Below, one piece after another: positions 1 through 34,095 of a DNA stretch of 64,000 bases. The notes under the pieces are model-generated. The model did no database searches and was not told the origin of the DNA. It was given only the letters and a program-made list of their open reading frames with translations. Both the position numbers and the translations under genes were made by a program. This stretch comes from Candidatus Thalassarchaeum betae (lineage in GTDB: Archaea > Thermoplasmatota > Poseidoniia > Poseidoniales > Thalassarchaeaceae). Location: NCBI GenBank assembly GCA_003193925.1, contig PSPG01000012.1, forward strand, positions 32,756 to 96,755, given 5' to 3'. Position 1 is the stretch's first letter. Each line of letters begins with the position of its first letter.

Positions 1-602
1 TGGAAGCCCTCTAGGTAGTTGTCGACGTAGAGAGCCCAGTTCGCTTCGATGTCATAGGAGCGGTGGCGCGATGGGTCGTGCTCGAAGGACTCGATCGGCA
101 TCCAACCCAAGCGCGACTCCAACTCGTCGAGGCAACCCCCGAACCCGTTCGGCTCAGTGCCTGCGAACAGCAGCCCCTTCCAGCGCTTGAGCGCGAAGGG
201 AGCTAGATCGTCGGCAGGGCTGGGAAAACCCTCCACCCCCTCGAACTCGGGCATGTTCCGGAAGCACCCGTCGAGCCCGAAGGTCCGCCCGTGGTAGCCA
301 CAGCGCAGCGTGGAGGCGCTGCACGGCTCGGTCGCGACCAGCATCCCGCGGTGGGTGCAGACGTTGGAAACGCAGCGGACGACATCATCGCGAGTCAGCA
401 GCATCGGCTCGCCGACGAGGCTCTCCATGTGCTCCAGCGGCAGCACGTTGTGCTCGGCCAACTGGCTCTCGTGTGCTGCGAAGTGCCAGCATCCGCAGAA
501 TTCCGAGACGATCCCGGCGAAGACGCCCTCGTCGGTGTAGTAGCGGGAAGGCAGTGTGTGCGCCTTCCTGATATCCGGGTCGATGAGCTGCTGTTCCGAC
601 AT
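1..602 (-). CDS. Rieske [2Fe-2S] non-heme iron oxygenase alpha-subunit-like protein; N-terminal part only, C-terminus lies beyond the window start
   Basis: Manual reverse-strand translation from the ATG at 602 runs open to position 1 and is absent from the ORF track because it leaves the window. It contains a Rieske motif CTHRG-x15-CGYHG and an NW...DNYLEGFH catalytic-domain start. Its ATG overlaps the GrpE stop (ATGA). Confidence 0.55.
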   Translation of the reverse strand, partial: MSEQQLIDPDIRKAHTLPSRYYTDEGVFAGIVSEFCGCWHFAAHESQLAEHNVLPLEHMESLVGEPMLLTRDDVVRCVSNVCTHRGMLVATEPCSASTLRCGYHGRTFGLDGCFRNMPEFEGVEGFPSPADDLAPFALKRWKGLLFAGTEPNGFGGCLDELESRLGWMPIESFEHDPSRHRSYDIEANWALYVDNYLEGF

Positions 603-11265: not shown

Positions 11266-13521
11266 ATGAAGTCTAAGCTAACAGCAACACTTCTTTGCAC
11301 GCTAATGATTGTATCAACTCTTGCCGGTTGTCTCGGCGGGGATGATGGAGACGACGACCCAGACCCAACGATGGTCATGGGATGTACCTACGCGGACGCG
11401 ACCAACTACAACGCCGACGCTACGATGGACGACGGATCATGTGAGTATGCGCCCGGTGAGGAGCCAGTTCTTGGCTGCACCAACGCGGGCGCTACGAACT
11501 ACGATTCCGCCGCCACTCGTGACGACGGCTCGTGTACCTACGCTGAAACCGTGATGGGCTGCATGGACCCGGCTGCTAACAACCATAACGCAGATGCCGA
11601 AGACGATGACGGTTCTTGCGACTATGGTATGGCTCAGGGAGACATTATGGCAGCCTACTCGGCTGGCGACATGTCCTTCGAGGAGGCTCTGTACGAGCTC
11701 GAGAAGTCGAGAAAGTGCCGTGAGCAGGGTTCCAACAACCCCTGTGAGATAGTCGAGATGTCGATTGGCGACGCCTCGACAATCGACCCCCACGATGCGT
11801 ACGACTCGGCATCCGGAGACGTCATTGAGCAGGTCTACGACACGCTCTACCGCTATGCGGGTGACGGAAGCGGAAACGCCATCATCGAGCCCCGCCTCGC
11901 CACCGGCTATTCAGTCAGCGCCGACGGTCTGACCTACACGTTTGATCTACGAGATGACGTGTACTTCAGCAACGGTGACCTGATGGAGGCCTCTGACGTT
12001 GTGTACTCATGGTGCCGCGTACTTGGCTACGGCTCGCCCGACAGCCACGTGGGCTGGATCCTAGAGCAGAGCTTCGACTGCAACGACGCTGATGGTAACC
12101 ACAGCGACACTGGCGGCGAAAGTCTCACTGTCAACAGCGCGACCTCTTTCTCGGTCACACTGTTCGCTGAATCCTCGGCGTTCATCTCGACGATCGCCTA
12201 CACGGTCGGCGCTGTGATCAACGCCGAGCTGTGCGAGGCCAACCGCGTCGATGCGGGCGGTGATGGCGACGACTACTGCCACGAGTGGATGGACGAGGCT
12301 CCGTTCGGAGCTGGGACCAACGCTTATCTGGTACAGTCTTGGGTCCGTGAGGACCGACTCGTCCTCGTGCCGAACTGGATGTACTGGGAGAGCGGTGATT
12401 ACAACATCAACCGCCACACCGTGTCCATAGTTACCGAGGCCACGACAAGGCTGCTCGCCTTCACCGACGGTGAGGTCGACTTCGGCAGCATCAACATCGA
12501 GGATCTGGTGAACTTCTGCGACAACCTGGAAGACAAGCCTAACGTACAGTCCAAGGCAGGATACATCTGCAGTTACAGGGAGACCTTCACTACGACCCTG
12601 TCGGCCTTCAACCTACACCCGAAGGCCCTTGATGCAGGAGAGGACAACACCAACACTGGTGCTAACTCGTCCCTCATCCTCAACCACGACTGCAGCGGCG
12701 ACGGCACCAACGACTGCAGCGTCATGGAGGTAGGAGCGGTCCGAGCGGCCATCTCCTACGCGTTCGACTACGAGACCCACCGAAGGGACACGTACGACAA
12801 CTCGCTGGCACCGCAGTACGGCCCGATCCCGACTGGCTTCCTGTATGCGGATACCCAGTACGAGGTCTTCACCTACGACCTGGCCTACGCTGAGCAGCTC
12901 CTAGAGGACGCTGGCTTCATCCGCCAGTACGACTGCTCCTCGCTGAGCCGCAGCGGTGCGGCAGACGTGGTCGCTGAGGCAGACAGAGACGGCACCGAGT
13001 GCCGCCTGCCGAACATCCTGGGCGTAATGGCCAACGAGGGCAACGACTACCGAATCGCCATGGCCGGCCAGCTCGCTGAGGCCCTGGGGACCATCGGAGT
13101 CGCCACCGCCGGAGATGCCAAGCCATGGGCAGAGTACCTGACCATGTACTACACCAGGACATGGGACATCAGGTTCAGCGGATGGGCCCCTGACTACCTC
13201 GACCCCGACAACTACTGGTCGCCGTTCGCCGGCGGTTACTCCATCGGCGGCGACGCCTATGGTACGGGTTACGAGAACGCGGACGTCAACGCCGCCCTGC
13301 TCATTGGCAGGACCTCGCAGGACGACGCTACGCGCGAGCAGGCGTACGTCGATGCCTTCGAGGCCTGGATCCTAGATCCCAACATGATCATCATTGGACA
13401 GTACAACGGCGTAGGTGTCAAGCACGACGACATCTGCAGCCCGGACTGGGTCGCCATTGGGTCCGCCCACTGGTTCGACTACGACAAGCTGCCAATGGTC
13501 AAGTCGGCTCCTGCTGATTAA
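11266..13521 (+). CDS. oppA: ABC transporter substrate-binding lipoprotein, family 5 (oligopeptide/dipeptide, OppA-like), with N-terminal Cys-containing tandem repeats
   Basis: Signal peptide plus lipobox (LAGC), three ~30-aa GC[T/M]xAxATNYxxxATxDDGSCxY repeats, then an SBP_bac_5-like domain. It sits upstream of the permease and ATPase genes. Confidence 0.85.
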   Translation: MKSKLTATLLCTLMIVSTLAGCLGGDDGDDDPDPTMVMGCTYADATNYNADATMDDGSCEYAPGEEPVLGCTNAGATNYDSAATRDDGSCTYAETVMGCMDPAANNHNADAEDDDGSCDYGMAQGDIMAAYSAGDMSFEEALYELEKSRKCREQGSNNPCEIVEMSIGDASTIDPHDAYDSASGDVIEQVYDTLYRYAGDGSGNAIIEPRLATGYSVSADGLTYTFDLRDDVYFSNGDLMEASDVVYSWCRVLGYGSPDSHVGWILEQSFDCNDADGNHSDTGGESLTVNSATSFSVTLFAESSAFISTIAYTVGAVINAELCEANRVDAGGDGDDYCHEWMDEAPFGAGTNAYLVQSWVREDRLVLVPNWMYWESGDYNINRHTVSIVTEATTRLLAFTDGEVDFGSINIEDLVNFCDNLEDKPNVQSKAGYICSYRETFTTTLSAFNLHPKALDAGEDNTNTGANSSLILNHDCSGDGTNDCSVMEVGAVRAAISYAFDYETHRRDTYDNSLAPQYGPIPTGFLYADTQYEVFTYDLAYAEQLLEDAGFIRQYDCSSLSRSGAADVVAEADRDGTECRLPNILGVMANEGNDYRIAMAGQLAEALGTIGVATAGDAKPWAEYLTMYYTRTWDIRFSGWAPDYLDPDNYWSPFAGGYSIGGDAYGTGYENADVNAALLIGRTSQDDATREQAYVDAFEAWILDPNMIIIGQYNGVGVKHDDICSPDWVAIGSAHWFDYDKLPMVKSAPAD

Positions 13522-13663: not shown

Positions 13664-14848
13664 ATGAAGCTGCACGAGTTCGTAGCTCGCCGCCTGCTCC
13701 TGCTGATCCCTGTGATGGTGGGAGTCACGGTCCTGACATTCACCATCTCTCATCTCATCCCCGCAGATGCCGCCGCCGCACAGTGTGGCGACAAGTGTGG
13801 CGTCGTCGTTGATTACACCGAAGATGGTGATCCCATAACCGCTTATGCGGCCAACAGGGAAAGGCTGGGGATGAACGAACCGCTCACCACGCAGTTCAGG
13901 CTCTACGTGACCCATCTCTTACAAGGCGACTGGGGGGAATCGAGCACCTATCACCGTCCCGTCGCAGATGTGGTGAAAGACGCGGCCCCGATCACCTTGG
14001 AGATGTCCTTCTTCGCTCTACTCATAGCCTATCCCCTGGGGATCTCCCTCGGCATCCTCAGCGCTGTTCGGCAGGACCGGATGTTCGATCACATCTCGCG
14101 ATTCTTCGCCATAGCGTTCGTCAGCCTGCCGATATTCTGGTTCGCGATGGTCCTGCAACTATTGTTCGCTACCCAAGCCCCCGAATCAGGAGTTGGAGGT
14201 ATCTGCGACCCGCTCACGAAGTGGCTCCCGCTCGTCCCCGACACGGATGGAGGCTGCTTCCCTATCTACGGGAGGCACGACCCCAGCCTCACGTACCCCG
14301 AAGACGGATTCGCCTCTTTCTACCCTGCAGGAGGGACCGGGTTCCACCTGATCGACAGCTGGTTCGTGACCGACGGGAAGCTGGCCACACTGCCGGCCAA
14401 GTTTGGCTCCAACCGGCTGCTCTTCAAGGACACCCTGTTGCACCTAGCACTGCCCTGCGCATGCCTGGGCATCGCCTCCTCCGGTTCCCTGCTGAGGTAC
14501 ATGCGCGCCAGCCTCCTCGAGGTCCTACACGAGGACTACGTGAGGACTGCCCGCGCTAAGGGACTCTCTGAGTTCAGGGTGGTCATAGTACATGCATGCA
14601 GGAACGCTCTGGTCCCGATAGTCACCATCCTCGGATTCTCAATCGGCGGAGCGATAGGCGGCGCTGTACTGACTGAGACAATTTTCGCCTTCAACGGCAT
14701 GGGCCGGGTGGCTGTCAAGTCAATCCAGTACCTCGATTTCCCCGTCATAATGGGTGTGACGCTGATTACTGCGGCCATCTTCCTGCTGTCCAACCTCGTT
14801 GTGGACATATTGTATGCAATCATAGATCCAAGGGTGAGGCTTGAATGA
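13664..14848 (+). CDS. oppB: ABC peptide transporter permease (OppB/DppB-like)
   Basis: 394 aa with six TM helices and a BPD_transp_1 EAA-like region (YVRTARAKGLSE). It has a Cys-containing periplasmic insertion between TM helices. Confidence 0.9.
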   Translation: MKLHEFVARRLLLLIPVMVGVTVLTFTISHLIPADAAAAQCGDKCGVVVDYTEDGDPITAYAANRERLGMNEPLTTQFRLYVTHLLQGDWGESSTYHRPVADVVKDAAPITLEMSFFALLIAYPLGISLGILSAVRQDRMFDHISRFFAIAFVSLPIFWFAMVLQLLFATQAPESGVGGICDPLTKWLPLVPDTDGGCFPIYGRHDPSLTYPEDGFASFYPAGGTGFHLIDSWFVTDGKLATLPAKFGSNRLLFKDTLLHLALPCACLGIASSGSLLRYMRASLLEVLHEDYVRTARAKGLSEFRVVIVHACRNALVPIVTILGFSIGGAIGGAVLTETIFAFNGMGRVAVKSIQYLDFPVIMGVTLITAAIFLLSNLVVDILYAIIDPRVRLE

Positions 14849-16606: not shown

Positions 16607-18292
16607 GTGTCGGATAACTTGCTCGAGATCGAGGGTCTCAGAGTCCACTTCGACACTCTGGACGGGCCAATTGAGGCTCTCCACTCCGTAGACCTGAAGG
16701 TCAAGCAGGGCCAGATAATGGGGCTGGTCGGTGAGTCGGGGTGCGGGAAGTCAGTCACTTCACTGGTGACGATTGGTCTGGCTACCTGTGATGTCGACGA
16801 GGGCAGCGTGAAGTACGAAGGCGAGGAAATGCTGTTCAGTGTTTCAGAGCACGACAAGAAAATCCAAGACGTCTCAGGACGGATAACCGTGCTCGGGGTA
16901 TTGGCATCGATAGTAGCGGTTTTCTGGACGATTCTGATAAACCCCATTCAGGGCATTACCCTCCTTGTCATATTCTTGTTCGTGGCAATAGTCTCGTGGA
17001 TTTTTGGGTTTATCGCTAAGAGCGAATACCGACGCCATCAGAAGTTCATGCAATCGGTGCGCGGCAACAAGATCAGCATGATCTTCCAGGAGCCCATGAC
17101 GGCCCTCAACCCGCTTTACACGGTGGAGAAGCAGATCTCCGAGGTGATGCGCGTGCACGACAGGCTTGTCGAGGCCGAGACTCCGCGTTACGTCAGAGTC
17201 GGTCAGGCACTTGTCAGCCCTGCCACCCTCATCCGCGACGCCTTTTCCTCACGGCCACAAGCGTCGATTGCCACCTCCTCCGTTCTCGCCTTTGTCCTCG
17301 TCGCCCATCTGTCTGGCTTCGCCGACTCCGCTGCAGAGGCAGTCACCGCTCCCTTCGTCTTCGTCTTCAAGGATCTCTTCTGGGTCCTCATCGTCCTCCT
17401 TAGCGGATATCTTGTGAATTCACGGGCACAAATCGAGGCGTTGAACGCCTTGTACCGGCCTCTAAAGTACGCCGCCCCTCAGGTTCCTCTTGTCTCCGCC
17501 GTGGCTTTGGTCATCTTCCTGATGCTCTGGATGCCGCTCTCCGCTTTCCTCGGGATGGCTGTAATCAGCACTCTCCTGGCCCTGCCGGCGATCATAGTCC
17601 TGGACTATCTGAGACTTGACCCCGCGCACACCCGACAGGTCATCGGACTCCTCGAGGAGGTCAGGATTCCGGATCCGAGCGCAGTTGTGAAGATGTACCC
17701 GCACGAACTCTCCGGAGGGATGCGTCAGAGGGTGATGATCGCCATGATGATGGCTTGCGAGCCCAAACTGCTCATCGCCGACGAGCCGACAACCGCCCTC
17801 GACGTTACAATTCAGGCCCAGATTCTACAGTTGATGCGAGACCTGCGCGACGAGAAGGACACGGCTATCCTGCTTATCACACACGACTTGGGGGTTATCG
17901 CCGAGATGTGCGACGCAGTCACCGTGATGTACGCCGGGGCGGTGGTCGAGACAGGCAGTATCGAGGATGTTCTTTCTAAACCTCGGATGCCCTACTCAAT
18001 CGGCTTGCTTCACAGCATTCCAACGATCGATGAAGAGGCTGGTCGCAGGGAGGTACTGCCTATCATCCCGGGCCAAGTCCCGGATCCCAACCTACACTTC
18101 GATGGTTGTAGGTTCCACCCTCGCTGCCCGTTCGCGGACGCAACATGCATCTCAACTCCGCCACCGATGAAGGAGGTCGAACCCGGTCACTTCGCAGCCT
18201 GCCACCACACCAATAGGACGGAGAACGTTGCAGACGTGCAGGCCTCATTCGACGTTTTCGCAGCCGAGTACGATTTGGAAGGAGTTGCCTGA
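16607..18292 (+). CDS. oppD: ABC peptide transporter ATPase (OppD-like) carrying two hydrophobic insertions (about 6 predicted TM helices) inside the nucleotide-binding domain
   Basis: Walker [10 protein letters not shown]-loop [14 protein letters not shown], signature LSGGMRQR, Walker B LLIADEPT and H-loop ITHDL are all present. It is 561 aa versus ~330 aa for a typical OppD. The extra ~230 aa are strongly hydrophobic segments inserted after Walker A and before the signature motif. Confidence 0.85.
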
Positions 18293-18293
18293 G

Positions 18294-19358
18294 ATGCCAG
18301 ATGACAGCAAGACCGACGAGGTCCTCATAGAGGTCGAGGGAATGAGGAAGTGGTTCCCGATCAAGAGCGGTATGCTGACTACGGTGAAGAGCCACGTCCG
18401 CGCAGTTGACGGGGTCGATCTGCAGGTAATGCGAGGTGAGACCCTCGGGATCGTCGGCGAGTCGGGTTGCGGTAAGACCACGCTGGGACGAGTCATACTG
18501 GGACTCACCCATATGACCGAGGGGTCGGTCCACTACGCCGGAGAGGACATCCGGATGATGACAAACAGAGACCTCAGGAGGAGGCTCCAGATTGTGTTCC
18601 AGGACCCCGGAGGCTCGATGAACCCGAGGATGTCGGTGCGATCCATAGTGGGGGAGCCACTCCAGGTGAATGGAATGGCCCAGGGTGCCGAGTTGACGCA
18701 GAGGGTAGCTGATTTGCTTGATTCCGTGGGCCTCAAGCGCGAGCACATGAACAGATTCCCCCACGAGTTCTCCGGTGGACAGAAGCAGAGGATCGCCCTA
18801 GCGAGGGCACTATCTCTGGACCCTGAGTTCATTCTCCTCGACGAGCCAACCAGCGCATTGGACGTGTCCGTTCAGGCCCAGGTTCTGAATCTGCTCGAGG
18901 AGATAAAGGCGAAGCACGGCCTCACTTTAGTCTTCATCACTCACGCACTCAACGTCGTCAACCACATTTGCGACAGAGTCGCAGTGATGTACCTCGGAAA
19001 GATCGTCGAGATTGCCAATACGAACGACCTGTTCAGTAAGCCAGCCCACCCATACACGCATGCTCTGATGTCGGCTATCCCAGAGCCCTCACTAGAAAAG
19101 GCCGCTAGGAGGAGGGTAGTTCTGAGTGGTGACGTACCCAGTCCCACAGACCCTCCTCCGGGATGCAGGTTCCACACCCGTTGCCCCATCGCTGAGGAGG
19201 GGCTCTGCGATGTCGAGGAGCCGAAACTTGAGTCCATCGGTGAAGGCCATGAGGTCGCGTGCCACTTCCCACTGGGTCCCGGGATGAAACTCCCAATGCT
19301 AGACGATGCCGAGAACCCCTCTGAGGAAGACCACGGGCCGAAGACGATCGTATTCTGA
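18294..19358 (+). CDS. oppF: ABC peptide transporter ATPase (OppF-like)
   Basis: Canonical NBD motifs ([27 protein letters not shown]) and a C-terminal oligopeptide-transporter Cys motif. The ATG lies 2 nt after the oppD stop. Confidence 0.9.
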
Positions 19359-19367
19359 GGGACACCA

Positions 19368-19742
19368 ATGGCTGAGAAGGAATCCGACACAGACGGAACC
19401 GAGGCCACTCCCCCTCCGATGCACGACAAGAAAGAGGAGGCAGAGGCCGCCTTCTGGAGACTGAAGAAGGCCTCTGACAAGAGCAGAGAGGAGCGAGTCA
19501 AGCGAGTTCTGGCTCAGGAGGGGGAAGGGCTTCTGACTACACTCGGCAGAGTGGTGTACATTTCGGCGTGCATAGTGTTCGATGGCGTGGTGCTGCTGCA
19601 AGTTCCAGCCGGCATGGGCAGGACCTTAGCCGCCTGGTCCCTGTATGTGGTCTTGCTAGTAGTCGCCATCAAGCTACAGCACGACCTCTACGAGAAGTGG
19701 TTCGATGTCGACATCAGTCCGATCGACTTTGATCGGCAGTGA
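19368..19742 (+). CDS. Hypothetical small membrane protein (two TM helices) apparently co-transcribed with the opp operon
   Basis: 124-aa ORF 10 nt downstream of oppF, with a hydrophilic N-terminus followed by two hydrophobic helices. No recognisable family. Confidence 0.4.
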   Translation: MAEKESDTDGTEATPPPMHDKKEEAEAAFWRLKKASDKSREERVKRVLAQEGEGLLTTLGRVVYISACIVFDGVVLLQVPAGMGRTLAAWSLYVVLLVVAIKLQHDLYEKWFDVDISPIDFDRQ

Positions 19743-20976: not shown

Positions 20977-21238
20977 CGCGGGAACAGGCGCATTTCAAGA
21001 TGTCTTGAGGGCAATCTGAGCAATCCTCGGAGTACAGTGAATGGACAGATGAACGAAGGCAGTAATATTGATATTTCAATTGTTCTCATTTGAACATATT
21101 ATTCTACGAGAATTGTACAAACGTACAATAATCATCTAATTGAGTGAATATTCTGCTAGTATCAACGTCATGTGATGTTCATTCGACCGAATGATTATAG
21201 CACTCTCTCGCACGCATGCGCGCGTTCGGGGGAGTAAG
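20977..21238. promoter_or_regulatory. AT-rich divergent control region (MFS transporter to the left, glutamate synthase to the right) with a palindromic TTGTACAA motif and TATA-like elements
   Basis: A roughly 35% GC stretch in a >60% GC genome. It contains TTGTACAAACGTACAA (an 8-bp perfect palindrome plus a half-site repeat), ATGATTATAGCAC roughly 40 nt upstream of the ATG at 21239, and a GGGGGAG Shine-Dalgarno-like element. Confidence 0.5.
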
Positions 21239-22741
21239 ATGTTTGAGTCAGCGGCGCAGGTAGGCCTGGAATCCCAAGACGGCCCGTTGACACTCGACAG
21301 ATTCGGGGCCGAATCGGCGCGAATCGGTAGGGAGGTCGCAGACCGCTACCACCGCTATCGCATCGAGACCGAGGAGGTCGACGACGCCCAGCCGCTGCCT
21401 CACAGGTTCCTTGTCAAGGTCGGTAAGGTCGGTCTCGCGAAGTTCATCGCCAAGGAGATGCTGATGTACTTCGGACAGTTCGATGTCATCCTCTCCAGGC
21501 CGTGCACCTATGGTGTATTCTCAGGGCCGGTGGGCGGCTTCGCTCCTAGGCCCAAACTGTGTGTTGGATGCCTGCGCTGCTGCGTCCAGCACCCGGATTT
21601 CGTCAAGGTCCTGCCAAACCCAGATCTTCTGGCCCTGGGAGACTCGTACACCACGCACGGGCACATCACCGCCATCGACGAGGAGGCGAGGAAGGGCATG
21701 GTCCCGGTTCGCGGCCAGGGCTATAGGGGGCGCTTCGGCGGACCTGGCTTCGATGGGATGCTGACCGACATGTCCGAGATCGTCCGCCCGAGCAGGGATG
21801 GCATCCACGGACGCGAACTCATCGGCACCTCCGTGGACGTCGGCAGCAAGCCGATGCACCTCTCGTTCGACTCCAGCGGCAACCTCTCCGGAAGCACCCC
21901 CGAGATGTTCACCATTCAGGTTCCGTTCGTCTTCGACCTGCCCCCTGGCAACCTCGGCTCGACCGGCCTAGTCAAGGTGGTCGACACAACGAGCAGGCGC
22001 ATCGACACCCTCGCGTGCCTCGATGCGCACACCGTCGTACGGCTCAGAATGGACGCGCCTCACATCGTCCCGGTGCTCGATACCGCTGAGGCCGCGCACG
22101 CATCCGAGTTCCCAGCCGCGAGGCTGGTCGAGCTCGATGGTTGGGACGCTGACGCTTTCGAGGCGGCAAACGAGGCTACCGATGCCATGGTCGGAGTGCG
22201 CCTGCACTTCGAGGAGGGCTGGCAGGAGCGCTTGAACGCCGCAGTGGACGCCGGCGCCAAGGTCATCCACCTGCTCGCCGACCTGCACGCACGAGGCACT
22301 GACGGGACCTTTGTCTCTGAGTTGTTCAAGGAGGCACACATGATGCTCATTGAGCAGGGCAGACGCGACACGGTCACCCTGTTCGGAGGGGGTGGCATAG
22401 TCGGCGCTGACCACGTCCCCAAGGCGATTATCAGCGGACTTGACGCAGTTGCGCTGGACCTGGCTGTGCTGTTCGCACTGCAAGGGCGTTCGCACGGCTC
22501 TCTGGAGAAGCGGGATAGGGTCTCAGGTACCCTGCCTAGGATGCTCGACCACGGGTGGGCCGAGCAGAGGCTCGCCAACCTGTGCGGCTCGTGGAGAGAC
22601 CAACTGCTGGAGATTCTCGGCGCGATGGGCATCCGCGAGGTGCGCCGCCTGAGGGGCGAGTTCGGTCGTTCGATGATAGTCAAGCACCTCGAGGACGAGG
22701 CCTTCGAGGGAATAGCGGGCTACACCGGAGGTGGTGCTTGA
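21239..22741 (+). CDS. Glutamate-synthase-associated protein, GltB-related with an N-terminal Cys cluster (C-x20-C-x2-C-x2-CC); putative accessory or electron-transfer subunit
   Basis: First gene of a three-gene unit and translationally coupled (TGATG) to the FMN-domain gene. The C-terminal region VTLFGGGGIVGADHVPKAIISGLDAVALD resembles the TIM-barrel phosphate-binding end of glutamate synthase and NPD-type FMN enzymes. The function is inferred only from context. Confidence 0.45.
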   Translation: MFESAAQVGLESQDGPLTLDRFGAESARIGREVADRYHRYRIETEEVDDAQPLPHRFLVKVGKVGLAKFIAKEMLMYFGQFDVILSRPCTYGVFSGPVGGFAPRPKLCVGCLRCCVQHPDFVKVLPNPDLLALGDSYTTHGHITAIDEEARKGMVPVRGQGYRGRFGGPGFDGMLTDMSEIVRPSRDGIHGRELIGTSVDVGSKPMHLSFDSSGNLSGSTPEMFTIQVPFVFDLPPGNLGSTGLVKVVDTTSRRIDTLACLDAHTVVRLRMDAPHIVPVLDTAEAAHASEFPAARLVELDGWDADAFEAANEATDAMVGVRLHFEEGWQERLNAAVDAGAKVIHLLADLHARGTDGTFVSELFKEAHMMLIEQGRRDTVTLFGGGGIVGADHVPKAIISGLDAVALDLAVLFALQGRSHGSLEKRDRVSGTLPRMLDHGWAEQRLANLCGSWRDQLLEILGAMGIREVRRLRGEFGRSMIVKHLEDEAFEGIAGYTGGGA

Positions 22742-29090: not shown

Positions 29091-30464
29091 CTATTCCTCT
29101 GAAGAATCACCAATTATCTGCTGCTTCCTCAACTCAGCTTGAAGGGTAACCAGCTCAAGATAAGAAGTTCTAGCCTCGAGGTACTTCTTCATCTCATCCA
29201 AGTAGGACTGCTTCTCGGCGGCGTAAAGACTCCCGTCCCTAGCGTTTGCGTCCATCTTGTACAGTATGGTGAAGAAGAAAAGAGTGAGGACTAGGGGCCC
29301 CAGGAGCATGAGGTAATTATCATCCAGATTGTAGGTGCTACCCTTCACTTCGGTACCGGACCCTAGGATGATGGAAATAATCACTACACTAGGCCATAGG
29401 ATCAGATTCGCGAGCAGCAGGACCCACTCGTAGAGCTCATACTCAGATCTCCTACTGGGTCTGCGTGGTTTGGTAACCGGGGCCTGTTCCATGCGACTAT
29501 CTAACTCGCCCACATGGGGGGTGAGATATGAGGATTCTGCACCATCGTCGGCCGAATCAATGAGTAGAGAGGTATCGATTTCAGAGTCCCTCTTGGGACC
29601 CTTCACTCTATCCCTGTAAAGTGGTATGGAAACAGCAGAGAAGAAACCGAACAGACCTACCGCCGAGGAAACAATAACTGTCCAATCGTAGGAATATTCT
29701 CCTACGTCCACCATCCTGAGGACGAAAGATCCAATGAATACCAATGATAGGTAGTACAACGACTGAAATTTCTTCAGTAGGTAAAGCACAGAGGATAGGA
29801 GCAGAAGAACGACCATCACATCGACGACGCCAGAATGCAATGAGAGCGCGTCAAAGGCCTGGTGAGAATCGAAATCTAACGAAATCAGTTTGGCCCCGAT
29901 TAAGCCGAAGATGGAAATCAGAATCGCAACGTCCTGGCCGGTTTCACCTAATCCCTCAACCATTGAGGAAACAAGACCATGCGAGACTGAGCCCTCGGAG
30001 AGATACGCCAGCCAGAGCGCAGTTTGGAATATCACGGTGGCAGGGATGATGTAAGGAAGGTGAGTACCTACTGCCTTCAAGCCGGATACGATCTTTTTCC
30101 CAGCACCCCTCATCCAGTCCCCCAATCCCGAGGCTTTCTCCGGGATATTGGCATTCTCTACCGAAGACGTGATCCTGCTGCCGAACTTCTCAATCCCCTC
30201 CTGGGTCCTCACCAGAAGAGACTCGGTGTCGGATGAGTCGGAAGCCCCCTCCTCTTCTCCGAAACCTCCCCCTTCTGGTTTCGGGTCCTTGCTGAACTTC
30301 TCCCTTATCGAATCCTCCAGTTTTCTGGAAGCCGCATCCACGGTGTCCAATGCCTTCTTCACCCTAGACTCAAATGAGTCGTCATTGGACTCATCCGCCA
30401 TGTCCGGTGCAACGCATCGCAACCCTTGAATCTCTCGTCGCCTTGGAATCATCATGCAGGACAT
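29091..30464 (-). CDS. Hypothetical membrane protein with an acidic cytoplasmic N-terminus, ~8 TM helices and a C-terminal coiled region
   Basis: 457-aa ORF 7 nt upstream of the CPBP gene with the same low-GC composition. No recognisable family; the start may be the internal MADESNDDS. Confidence 0.5.
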   Translation of the reverse strand: MSCMMIPRRREIQGLRCVAPDMADESNDDSFESRVKKALDTVDAASRKLEDSIREKFSKDPKPEGGGFGEEEGASDSSDTESLLVRTQEGIEKFGSRITSSVENANIPEKASGLGDWMRGAGKKIVSGLKAVGTHLPYIIPATVIFQTALWLAYLSEGSVSHGLVSSMVEGLGETGQDVAILISIFGLIGAKLISLDFDSHQAFDALSLHSGVVDVMVVLLLLSSVLYLLKKFQSLYYLSLVFIGSFVLRMVDVGEYSYDWTVIVSSAVGLFGFFSAVSIPLYRDRVKGPKRDSEIDTSLLIDSADDGAESSYLTPHVGELDSRMEQAPVTKPRRPSRRSEYELYEWVLLLANLILWPSVVIISIILGSGTEVKGSTYNLDDNYLMLLGPLVLTLFFFTILYKMDANARDGSLYAAEKQSYLDEMKKYLEARTSYLELVTLQAELRKQQIIGDSSEE

Positions 30465-31752: not shown

Positions 31753-34095
31753 ATGGCAGAGGGCTTCAGCACACCTAGGACGAGCGTGCTGACCCTCATG
31801 CTCATGCTCCTGATGGCTGTCACGGCGAGTTCGATAACGTATGCACAGGACGCCGATGATTCGGCAGGCCCCGGAATCACATGGGATATGCCCGAGCATC
31901 ACATGCTCTACCTCAAGGGCACGGAGGCGGCGCCCTTCCTAGACAGGAACTGGACCACTAACACCGGCGAGCCCCTAGGCAAGGCGGAGTTCACCAAGAC
32001 CAGTTCGGCGCTGTCACCCACTCTGTTGGACATACAATCCGCCCCGCTCGCCGAGTCCTTCCACTTCGAAGGCAACATCACAGTCAGGCTGTTCGCCTCG
32101 CTCGAGTCGAGCAATGACGGCTGCAGGTTCACCAACATCGTCCCCGGATCGCCGGCGGGGGCTGAGACCCAGTTCGAAGTCACGCTGTCTCTGGGCAGCA
32201 CGACCGTTCTGTCCCAAGCTCCGACCAACGCGGTCGTCATGGAGGAGTCTTACCTGTCGGCACATGTGTTCACCGTCCAGGCTATCGACGTGAATGCCAC
32301 CATGAGCCAAGGCGACTTGGTCTCTCTGAGGGTGGACGCCCAGCATAACTGCTTCCTGACAGGAGTGTTGTGGTGGGGTACATACGACGCTACTTCGGGC
32401 ATTATTCTGAACGGTGACGTCGTCGACCCTCTGTTGGATTACAGCATCGACTCGAATAGGATGGTGAGGGTGGAGTTCACCCCCATCTCGCCGTGGGGCC
32501 CTGATGACTTCCACCAACAGGTTCTGGAGATTGTCGGTCCTATGGATTGGGACGGGATGTTGCACGGCTTCGGCAAGGAGGATCAGCGCCTCGAGCACTT
32601 CGAGGCGCCGCACGGAACCCGGGTCGGAGAGGCCAATAGGACGATCCTCACATGGTCCTCGGAGAACCCGTTGCAACCTGGGAGGTACATGGTCGACGCT
32701 TGTTTCACCGTCACCGATCAGGATCCAGGGCAGTTGTGCGATGTGATTGCGGTGCTGCGTTTCGAAGTACCCGAGGACCCGAGGCCGATGGTGGTAGCAA
32801 TGTGGGCCGCGGTCATCGTCCCTCTGGGGATGATCGTGTGGATCGGAGCTTCGATGCGAGAGGCTATGCTGCCTATCCAGACGTACGGCGTCATACTCCT
32901 GCTGGCACTCGCCGCACTCGGGCCGGCCCTGCATCTCCCCGACATCGATGCCAACGCCCCCCGGAGCGATGGTGCTGCGCCCTCATTCGCGCTCCTCTCT
33001 CACGGCGGAGGTGACCTGGTCAAACTGTCTGACCTGCTCTCTGATTCCGATGCTGTCGTCGTCGGCCTATTCCGGACGAGCTCGCCAAACGCAGAGCGTC
33101 AGCACAAAGACTTCGAAGGCGCCGCCATCATGATCGATGCTGACATAGCCTTTGTGCAGATAGCGACCGGAGAGGGGGTCCAATCAGTAGATCTGGACAC
33201 CTACGCCCTGTCGCTGAACGAGTTATGGCCCCTGTTGATGGACGAGGCTGACGCTTCGGTAGGAGAGGCGTTCCCCAGTGGCGCGACAGACGCTGTGATC
33301 GTGATCGATTCCGCGGGTTTCATCACGCACTGGCAACCGGGGACCATGTCCGCCTTGGAGATTGAGAAGGCAGTCTCATCAGCATCCAAGGGCTCTGGGA
33401 ACAACCCCTTGGCCCTGTTCTCGATGATTCTCAGCACGGCTGTACTGCCTCTAGTGGTGCTGGCTATGCCCCGAGAGAGAGAGATTGTGCTGCCCGAAGG
33501 GCCGCTCTTCCCCGCCGCAGGCTCCCTAATGACAGCCGCCGCTGCGGCTCTCGGGTTCGGCATGTGGGCGCTTCCGGTGGCCCTGATGGCCGCCCTTGGC
33601 CTGGGTTCGGTGTGGATTTGGATTGAACTGCTGCTGGCCGCAGTGCTGGTCTATCACGGTCTCTCGGTCCTGCTGCGTGGCAGGATAGCCGAGGTCGAGA
33701 CACTTGCGACCAAGGCGTATTCGCGCCTGCCCGCGGGATACCGCGCTTGGCGCGACTCAGCCAGTTTCAGCGAGGACGTGTATCTCGGGCTCTGGCTCGC
33801 ATGGTTGCTCTGGCTGCGAAACCCCTCCATGATCCCCCAAGGCGTGGGCGCCGTGGCGCGCTCGGACCTGATTGGCATCCCCCTCTCGATTCTGGCCATG
33901 CTGGGGTTCCTATTCGCTGCCGGTATCATAGTCATCCTAGCCCGATCCCTGGCCATGGCTCCCGGAGGGGTATCGCGCGTTTTCGGATGGCTCAGCGTCG
34001 GTATGCGCCCGCGCGCGTGGGGACTGGCCTCAGCCACGCTCGGCGCTTGGGTCTTCCTCAGCCTGCTCGTAGGCCCGGTTCTCGGCTCCCTCTGA
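31753..34095 (+). CDS. Large secreted, membrane-anchored protein with an N-terminal signal peptide, ~330-aa extracellular domain and polytopic C-terminal region
   Basis: 780 aa with a signal peptide (LMLLMAVTASSITYA), a beta-rich N-domain, a central Cys-less thioredoxin-fold-like segment (weak resemblance) and at least seven C-terminal TM helices. Confidence 0.45.
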   Translation: MAEGFSTPRTSVLTLMLMLLMAVTASSITYAQDADDSAGPGITWDMPEHHMLYLKGTEAAPFLDRNWTTNTGEPLGKAEFTKTSSALSPTLLDIQSAPLAESFHFEGNITVRLFASLESSNDGCRFTNIVPGSPAGAETQFEVTLSLGSTTVLSQAPTNAVVMEESYLSAHVFTVQAIDVNATMSQGDLVSLRVDAQHNCFLTGVLWWGTYDATSGIILNGDVVDPLLDYSIDSNRMVRVEFTPISPWGPDDFHQQVLEIVGPMDWDGMLHGFGKEDQRLEHFEAPHGTRVGEANRTILTWSSENPLQPGRYMVDACFTVTDQDPGQLCDVIAVLRFEVPEDPRPMVVAMWAAVIVPLGMIVWIGASMREAMLPIQTYGVILLLALAALGPALHLPDIDANAPRSDGAAPSFALLSHGGGDLVKLSDLLSDSDAVVVGLFRTSSPNAERQHKDFEGAAIMIDADIAFVQIATGEGVQSVDLDTYALSLNELWPLLMDEADASVGEAFPSGATDAVIVIDSAGFITHWQPGTMSALEIEKAVSSASKGSGNNPLALFSMILSTAVLPLVVLAMPREREIVLPEGPLFPAAGSLMTAAAAALGFGMWALPVALMAALGLGSVWIWIELLLAAVLVYHGLSVLLRGRIAEVETLATKAYSRLPAGYRAWRDSASFSEDVYLGLWLAWLLWLRNPSMIPQGVGAVARSDLIGIPLSILAMLGFLFAAGIIVILARSLAMAPGGVSRVFGWLSVGMRPRAWGLASATLGAWVFLSLLVGPVLGSL

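Follow-up and report, generated by a model that had tools for sequence, protein, structure and literature searches.

Why should the ATPase subunit of an oligopeptide importer carry six hydrophobic helices inside its catalytic domain? The nucleotide-binding domains (NBDs) of ATP-binding cassette (ABC) transporters are the textbook example of a soluble modular engine, which docks on the membrane domains only via the coupling helix. The question is raised by oppD, located at positions 16607-18292 (+) of a 64,000-nucleotide stretch of contig PSPG01000012.1 (the whole of which is called the window below) from Candidatus Thalassarchaeum betae, a Marine Group II archaeon of the lineage Thermoplasmatota, Poseidoniales, Thalassarchaeaceae. 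The gene encodes an ATPase of 561 amino acids (aa) in which the NBD is interrupted by two hydrophobic insertions. We consider it likely that the protein is a membrane-integrated NBD of the Marine Group II oligopeptide importer, with three transmembrane (TM) hairpins inserted at two loops and anchored beside the permease OppB.

An intact OppD interrupted at two sites

The open reading frame (ORF) of oppD starts with GTG and is uninterrupted, and its product is identical to an NCBI protein of Ca. Thalassarchaeum betae. Comparison with Pfam gave 87.7 bits for ABC_tran (cut-off 25) and 62.8 bits for oligo_HPY (cut-off 27.1). The catalytic motifs follow one another in the canonical order: Walker A, Q-loop (FQEP at 160-163, with Q161), LSGG, Walker B and H-loop (THD at 425, with H426). 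Two alignments are used below, A1 with 7 sequences and A2 with 32 long forms from Poseidoniales. In A2 the ABC motifs are invariant, save for one Walker B position that is conserved to at least 90%. The NBD is intact and probably catalytically competent. The protein has everything that defines an OppD/DppD ABC ATPase except the usual contiguous, water-soluble NBD.

The C-terminal domain is also of a familiar kind. Its four cysteines are spaced 6/7/18, exactly as the ligands C284, C290, C297 and C315 of the [4Fe-4S] cluster of Escherichia coli DppD (PMC12136057). They are invariant in the 32 Poseidoniales forms and conserved to at least 90% in alignment A5. Judged by this pattern the domain is of the 4Fe-4S type and contains a predicted cluster site. 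The surface that faces the permease can be compared in the same way. DppD of E. coli docks on DppB via T100, S101, N103 and E114, the last of which forms a salt bridge with DppB (PMC12136057). The equivalent residues of OppD are T165, A166, N168 and E179. With three of these four positions unchanged, the docking of OppD under OppB most likely still follows the normal coupling-helix mechanism, and nothing obvious appears to be missing from its contact surface.

The boundaries of the inserts were defined by a phmmer comparison with OppD of Mycobacterium tuberculosis (8j5q_D). Residues 5-76, 148-188 and 340-537 pair with residues 4-76, 83-123 and 127-322 of that protein, leaving aa 77-147 (insert 1, 71 aa) and aa 189-339 (insert 2, 151 aa) without a counterpart. 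The 33 canonical OppD(F) proteins that were aligned with it have just 7 and 3 residues, respectively, at these places. An earlier note, made from the letters of the DNA, had described an OppD with all canonical motifs in their normal order, about 230 aa longer than typical, with a first hydrophobic block of about 60 aa and two helices between Walker A and the Q-loop and a second of about 150 aa and some four helices between the Q-loop and the signature. This description proved accurate: all five motifs were located, E. coli DppD and OppD measure 327-336 aa against the 561 aa found here, the inserts contain two and four hydrophobic segments, and the peptides quoted for both blocks were correct.

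An AlphaFold2 model of the full protein, built on an alignment of 79 sequences, had a mean predicted local distance difference test (pLDDT) score of 84.8 and a predicted template modelling score (pTM) of 0.73. It supersedes an earlier, poor run with 32 relatives (pLDDT 56, pTM 0.37). The model consists of a canonical OppD core with the inserts folded into helical hairpins. The helices of insert 1 comprise residues 81-110, 113-137 and 139-151 (pLDDT 88-96 over 81-140) and those of insert 2 residues 194-215, 217-235, 239-269, 273-289, 293-308 and 311-334 (pLDDT 70-86). The best Foldseek match was E. coli OppD (8z21_C; E = 5e-27), with a template modelling score of 0.88 when normalised to the target and 0.52 when normalised to the query. 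No chain in the PDB found by Foldseek covered more than 56% of the model, or the inserts.

The position of insert 2 deserves attention. It starts 10 residues past E179, the equivalent of DppD E114, which places the insertion point beside the membrane-facing docking groove. At its other end, TM6 is connected to NBD helix alpha4 via a conserved YLxLDPAH motif with at most six linker residues. Taken together, these distances imply that this part of the helical subdomain would have to lie at the membrane surface.

Predicted membrane character of the inserts

Hydropathy was calculated in 19-residue Kyte-Doolittle windows and complemented by the Eisenberg mean hydrophobicity <H> and hydrophobic moment (muH), as well as by the additive biological scale of Hessa et al. 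2005. The six insert segments reach Kyte-Doolittle values of 1.82-2.88, while the maximum along the whole length of the 33 canonical OppD(F) proteins does not exceed 1.57; in 14 OppDs from Thermoplasmata it is 1.65. Their <H> is 0.64-1.00 and their hydrophobic moment is low (0.01-0.21); amphipathicity is strong in the flanking helices 139-151 and 273-289. Of the OppB and OppC helices encoded in the same operon, only one is more favourable on the Hessa scale than TM1, TM2, TM5 and TM6 (-2.5, -4.2, -0.3 and -0.9).

The distribution of charges follows the positive-inside rule across the 32 relatives. The frequency of K+R per residue is 0.018 in the TM1-TM2 turn (112-118) and 0.000 in the TM5-TM6 turn, where K, R, D and E are absent from all 32 sequences, as compared with 0.15-0.39 in the long predicted cytoplasmic linkers. 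Moreover, the window protein has an even number of predicted helices in each insert (2 + 4), so that both ends of an insert would be back in the cytoplasm and the NBD fold could close around it. Hydropathy, charge pattern and modelled helices thus lead to the prediction that the inserts are membrane-spanning. When the isolated inserts were compared with Pfam, only sub-threshold matches to generic two-helix membrane families (holin, DUF4190, promethin) were obtained, and these are not evidence of homology. A fused half-transporter, combining a transmembrane domain (TMD) with an NBD, was considered and rejected as an identity for OppD: the inserts match no permease family in Pfam and sit inside the NBD.

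The serious alternative is that the hydrophobic helices anchor OppD without spanning the membrane, either as monotopic or re-entrant hairpins or as interfacial helices in the cytoplasmic leaflet. The turns bear no charge and comprise just 2-7 residues, TM3 and TM4 are just marginally hydrophobic, and there is no sizeable translocated loop that would require a full span. Conserved Pro or Gly residues are also found at or near the turns (P310 and P327, which are invariant, and G116, conserved to at least 90%, in A2; P113 is invariant only in A1). However, TM1, TM2, TM5 and TM6 consist of 19-22 unbroken hydrophobic residues with Hessa values of zero or below, which are the length and the hydrophobicity of genuine spanning helices, and they exceed most OppB and OppC helices in hydrophobicity. 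AlphaFold2, too, gave straight helices of 16-30 residues, mostly at least 19, and no kinked wedges. For these reasons we regard a non-spanning anchor as unlikely, if by no means negligible.

A cytoplasmic role of the helices, as a hydrophobic bundle buried against the permeases or used for oligomerisation, is far less probable still. It might be argued that the topology was predicted from simple scales alone, and that a clade of Thermoplasmata has soluble, charged inserts at both sites, which means that these loops can bear cytoplasmic modules. Nevertheless, six helices with the hydrophobicity and low moments given above would be insoluble in water, none of the 33 canonical OppD proteins attains such hydrophobicity, and a positive-inside charge pattern would not be expected of a cytoplasmic bundle.

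Conservation and selection

The taxonomic range of the long OppD rests on source names and metagenome contigs. The best 120 clusters (79-100% identity), which came from JGI, ENA, NCBI, Logan and TARA, contained proteins of 542-587 aa, bar one fragment of 467 aa. An exhaustive HMMER search of 1.84 billion representatives yielded about eight long forms among the 150 best-scoring matches listed. Three of these were full-length (57-59% identity; 568, 586 and 651 aa), and the other matches listed were bacterial OppD-OppF fusions without inserts. When genome contigs were searched with a profile of the long-form alignment, the matches listed were again mostly bacterial fused OppDF, together with a locus (L001) from a Thermoplasmatota genome outside Poseidoniales; none of the at least 600 matches listed was from a Poseidoniales genome. 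On the HMMER search, the insert architecture appears to be confined to a restricted clade. Hundreds of independent contigs carry it, in assemblies from JGI, ENA, NCBI and TARA, and the most divergent clades that have it are about 53% identical. The clade of the 651-aa form, annotated as Ca. Poseidoniales, is very abundant, with one variant on 136 contigs and another on 95.

In the 32 long forms insert 1 always measures 71-76 aa and has two hydrophobic segments. Insert 2 varies between 128 and 240 aa and has three to five segments by a crude count, mostly four. Orthologues at the corresponding locus retain the two inserts, with unchanged boundaries. Column identity is 0.57-0.64 in the inserts and 0.88-0.95 in the core, and the hydrophobicity of the inserts is retained where their sequence diverges. 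The least conserved part is TM4 with the loop that follows it, which shows many indels. Conservation is highest in TM5-TM6 with the motif LW.P ... P ... YL.LDPAH, in which L307, W308 and P310 are invariant in A1 and A2, and P327, L335, L337, D338, P339 and H341 are invariant in A2. In insert 1, P113 and G116 are both invariant in A1, and in A2 only G116 is still conserved to at least 90%. Pairwise dN/dS (the ratio of nonsynonymous to synonymous substitution rates) against four orthologues was 0.06-0.10 in the core; in insert 1 it was 0.16-0.48, and in insert 2 0.24-0.40. On these rates the inserts are under purifying but relaxed selection.

One close relative shows a mosaic pattern. Compared with the 94%-identical orthologue at L085:4569-6254, insert 1 (16835-17047) has a dS of 0.58 and a dN of 0.235, and insert 2 and the C-terminal domain are nearly identical (dS 0.02-0.04). 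This suggests recombination that exchanged the first hairpin cassette alone.

The possibility that the long ORF is an artefact, whether through a chimeric join, as a pseudogene with a frameshift, or through an intein or mobile insertion that the mature protein no longer contains, can be regarded as effectively refuted: although G+C content and AT skew shift locally over 16750-17650 and insert 1 shows the mosaic divergence just described, the skew is accounted for by T-rich codons of hydrophobic residues, and an uninterrupted ORF found on hundreds of independent contigs from four sources, conserved and with an insert dN/dS below 0.5, rules out a chimeric join, a pseudogene and an untranslated element. 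Two specific candidates were tried and rejected. No Hint/intein or transposase family of Pfam was matched even at E = 10, and the 71 aa of insert 1 are too short for an intein; a patchy mobile insertion does not agree with the presence of the inserts in every Poseidoniales orthologue seen.

The suggestion of a lineage-specific architecture with TM hairpins in an intact NBD, which was also made in the earlier note, is thus supported by hydropathy, by the positive-inside pattern in 32 relatives, by the AlphaFold2 model and by recurrence on many assemblies.

The opp operon and its neighbours

The gene oppD is the fourth of a tight operon with the order oppA, oppB, oppC, oppD, oppF and a small ORF of 124 aa (Table 1). 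Its products comprise one SBP_bac_5 protein, two BPD_transp_1 permeases and two ABC_tran ATPases, the set typical of an oppABCDF operon. While oppA and oppB are 142 nt apart, from oppB to the 124-aa ORF stop and start codons overlap or are separated by 1-9 nt. Shine-Dalgarno-like elements (AGGAGG or GGAGG) stand ahead of the gene starts. The oppD gene itself begins right after the oppC stop, with AGGAGG 7 nt upstream of its start, and the ATG of oppF follows 1 nt past the oppD stop.

Table 1. Features of oppD and of the opp operon in window coordinates (KD, Kyte-Doolittle)
Feature	Position	Strand	Evidence
oppD, 561-aa OppD/DppD-type ABC ATPase with two hydrophobic insertions	16607..18292	+	ABC_tran 1.4e-24 in two stretches; oligo_HPY 4.1e-17
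Walker A GESGCGKS, aa 42-49	16730..16753	+	invariant in A2 and A5
Insert 1, aa 77-147: linker, two predicted TM helices, basic amphipathic helix; between Walker A and Q-loop	16835..17047	+	phmmer, AlphaFold2
Predicted TM1, aa 93-111	16883..16939	+	KD 2.58, Hessa -2.47, <H> 0.87, muH 0.19
Predicted TM2, aa 119-137	16961..17017	+	KD 2.88, Hessa -4.16, <H> 1.00
Q-loop block, aa 158-169, coupling-helix contact surface	17078..17113	+	motif, A2 alignment
Insert 2, aa 189-339: four predicted TM helices and amphipathic linkers; helical subdomain, between alpha3 and alpha4 (Q-loop to LSGG)	17171..17623	+	phmmer, AlphaFold2
Predicted TM3, aa 221-239, marginal	17267..17323	+	KD 1.82, Hessa +2.46, <H> 0.64
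Predicted TM4, aa 246-264, marginal, least conserved	17342..17398	+	KD 2.07, Hessa +4.28; column identity 0.41, indels
Predicted TM5, aa 293-311	17483..17539	+	KD 2.40, Hessa +0.71; best window 295-313, -0.26
Predicted TM6, aa 314-332	17546..17602	+	KD 2.50, Hessa -0.93
ABC signature LSGGM, aa 368-372	17708..17722	+	motif, A2 alignment
Walker B and catalytic Glu LLIADE, aa 388-393	17768..17785	+	motif, A2 alignment
oligo_HPY C-terminal domain, Cys501, 507, 514, 532	17945..18205	+	Pfam
oppA, substrate-binding protein, 763 aa	11230..13521	+	SBP_bac_5, 5.5e-51
oppB, permease, 394 aa, expected docking partner of OppD	13664..14848	+	Pfam; DppB-DppD pairing known in E. coli (PMC12136057)
oppC, permease, 585 aa, extra membrane helices	14845..16602	+	BPD_transp_1 in two stretches
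oppC insert, aa 281-450, four hydrophobic helices, at the canonical TM3-TM4 loop	15685..16194	+	DppC alignment, hydropathy
oppF, 354 aa, canonical ATPase without insertions	18294..19358	+	one ABC_tran stretch and oligo_HPY
Conserved 124-aa ORF, two hydrophobic segments	19368..19742	+	conserved position in L081-L085

The partner ATPase OppF is normal, as the earlier note had stated. Its ABC_tran stretch is uninterrupted, and it has no hydrophobic segment (the Hessa sum is never under +7.9). OppC, like OppD, is enlarged. Residues 18-63, 71-156 and 166-298 of E. coli DppC could be aligned, leaving two gaps. The first corresponds to a hydrophilic extracellular insert of about 120 aa (aa 74-194), and the second to the insert of about 170 aa with four hydrophobic helices (aa 281-450), which shows a positive-inside pattern. 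Poseidoniales retain both inserts, which are missing at the Thermoplasmatota locus L001.

The 124-aa ORF begins 9 nt past the stop of oppF. Its product is charged at the N-terminus and matched no Pfam family. Homologues occupy the same position in all five of the other Poseidoniales loci, the most distant of them with 41% identity. It may be that the protein is an additional, sixth subunit of the transporter.

Counting the window, the shared operon with a long OppC, a long OppD, a normal OppF and the small two-helix ORF was found in six of six Poseidoniales loci. In the five loci of distant clades (L081-L085), OppC has 579-636 aa and contains the insert with the four hydrophobic helices, OppD has 538-651 aa and OppF 353-355 aa. 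The small protein of 117-124 aa, with two hydrophobic segments, is encoded immediately downstream of oppF. At L001, OppC is of normal size (302 aa) and lacks the four-helix insert, there is no small ORF, and OppD has 454 aa (L001:3543-4907). OppF of this locus (428 aa) appears to be extended near its C-terminus.

Other peculiarities were observed in the neighbourhood. In OppA, three tandem Cys-containing repeats of about 27 aa, of the form GC.....A.NY...A..DDGSC.Y, occupy aa ~50-135 (window ~11380-11635, +), following a lipobox-like LAGC and preceding the SBP_bac_5 domain. In OppB, the external loop between TM3 and TM4 contains a hydrophilic, Cys-containing stretch of about 80 aa (aa ~172-254; window 14177-14425, +), which is longer than that of E. 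coli DppB. Further downstream the window contains large ORFs of 457-780 aa without a Pfam match at 21191-22741 (+), 29091-30464 (-) and 31753-34095 (+). The first of these lies directly upstream of glutamate-synthase-like genes, a position that is kept in L082, L084 and L085.

A model for a membrane-integrated OppD

How could an NBD accommodate membrane helices and remain functional? We propose that hairpins were acquired at two permissive surface loops of the domain. One hairpin would have entered between two strands, the first of which follows Walker A and the second of which runs up to the Q-loop; the other two would have entered the helical subdomain, in its variable region between alpha3 and alpha4. 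Every hairpin would leave and re-enter on the cytoplasmic side, so that the NBD fold stays unbroken. OppD would thereby have become an integral membrane protein that is permanently tethered next to OppB and the permeases. Of the functional suggestions in the earlier note, this tethering of the NBD to the membrane seems the most economical.

The tether may do more than hold the protein in place. The helical subdomain rotates as a rigid body during the ATP cycle. Because TM5-TM6 is joined to alpha4 by no more than six residues, this rotation would probably be passed to, or restrained by, the membrane-embedded element. This element might in turn pack against the permeases, the four extra helices of OppC and/or the small two-helix protein. 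The contribution of the inserts could thus lie in anchoring and assembly, or in an additional mechanical link.

Some observations do not sit easily with spanning hairpins that serve such a purpose. On the Hessa scale TM3 (+2.5) and TM4 (+4.3) are borderline. By a crude hydropathy count, insert 2 has three or five segments in 10 of the 32 relatives, and if this is taken literally the topology is broken in those proteins. The dN/dS of the inserts is four- to five-fold above that of the core, and much of the constraint on them may be simply to stay hydrophobic. Finally, OppD docks on OppB and the extra permease helices are in OppC, so a direct helix bundle of OppC and OppD is not the obvious geometry.

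Despite these points a membrane-integrated OppD remains the explanation that we prefer, and it lends itself to further speculation. Oxidation of the [4Fe-4S] clusters dissociates the E. coli DppBCDF complex (PMC12136057). By analogy, and purely as a conjecture, an anchored OppD would remain at the membrane in an oxygenated, sunlit habitat. It is also conceivable, although we think it doubtful, that the six helices of OppD, the four of OppC and the two of the small protein form a 12-helix accessory membrane domain. TM5-TM6 would then serve as a second transmission element, embedded in the membrane, that links ATP hydrolysis to the permeases, or would gate the ATPase by sensing the state of the membrane. 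If this were true it would amount to a coupling principle that has not been described for any ABC transporter.

Significance

If the proposed topology is correct, the NBD engine has been threaded into the membrane three times while keeping all its catalytic motifs, and two NBD loops are able to accept membrane hairpins. This would raise a question of biogenesis, since a cytoplasmic domain must fold around hairpins that are inserted co-translationally. The protein would also provide a natural experiment on the mobility required of the helical subdomain in the ATP cycle. Such an arrangement would be surprising for the ABC field, and the inserts are robustly conserved in an ecologically important lineage. 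The feature is not peculiar to one metagenome-assembled genome; the transporter is the oligopeptide importer that has been reported in most Marine Group II genomes (PMC6336850). These organisms rank with the most abundant archaea of the plankton, and proteins and peptides are believed to be their food. In databases the long OppD is labelled 'hypothetical' or 'ABC transporter ATP-binding protein', which makes the feature invisible to annotation-based studies.

Comparison with known systems

Neither phmmer comparison with the PDB nor Foldseek revealed a solved structure with membrane helices nested in an ABC NBD. No paper found in the open-access and bioRxiv literature describes an ABC NBD with membrane helices in its interior, or the feature in Marine Group II. 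Papers on Marine Group II genomes treat the oligopeptide transporter as a shared trait and do not mention the inserts (PMC6336850; PMC9723583).

In motif order, oligo_HPY domain, Cys spacing and the gene order oppABCDF, the system resembles OppBCDF (8Z21) and DppBCDF (8Z1V) of E. coli and OppABCD (8J5Q) of M. tuberculosis. Canonical OppD/DppD proteins, however, are soluble peripheral proteins of about 325-335 aa; against their 7 and 3 residues at the insertion sites, the protein described here has 71 and 151 residues, which form six hydrophobic helices.

An NBD and membrane helices are combined in one polypeptide in TMD-NBD fusions, such as the ABC half-transporters and the MacB-type proteins with an N-terminal NBD. 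In these the membrane domain is located at one end and forms the translocation pathway. OppD of Poseidoniales shares with them the single polypeptide, but its helices are nested within the NBD and match no permease family, and OppB and OppC are encoded by separate genes.

Soluble modules inserted into NBDs are well known: the regulatory insertion and the 'structurally diverse region' of CFTR NBD1, the arm of ABCF proteins such as EttA and the chromodomain of eEF3. They resemble the present case in that NBD surface loops take up added modules while ATPase function is kept, and the variable region between Q-loop and signature is a hotspot. They differ in being cytoplasmic, and regulatory or ribosome-binding; none consists of membrane helices.

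The closest parallel is found within the same phylum. OppD proteins of a Thermoplasmata clade (L001, JAVRLJ010000001; P0365-P0382, 454-467 aa) have inserts at the same two NBD loops. Unlike those of Poseidoniales, these inserts are short (32-37 and 110-113 aa), charged and have a Kyte-Doolittle maximum below 0.9. A derivation of the hydrophobic inserts from the hydrophilic ones was considered and rejected: the hhalign probability was below 1%, and there was no BLASTP similarity within the inserts. As both groups carry inserts at the same two loops, these are insertion hotspots, which in Poseidoniales carry predicted membrane hairpins.

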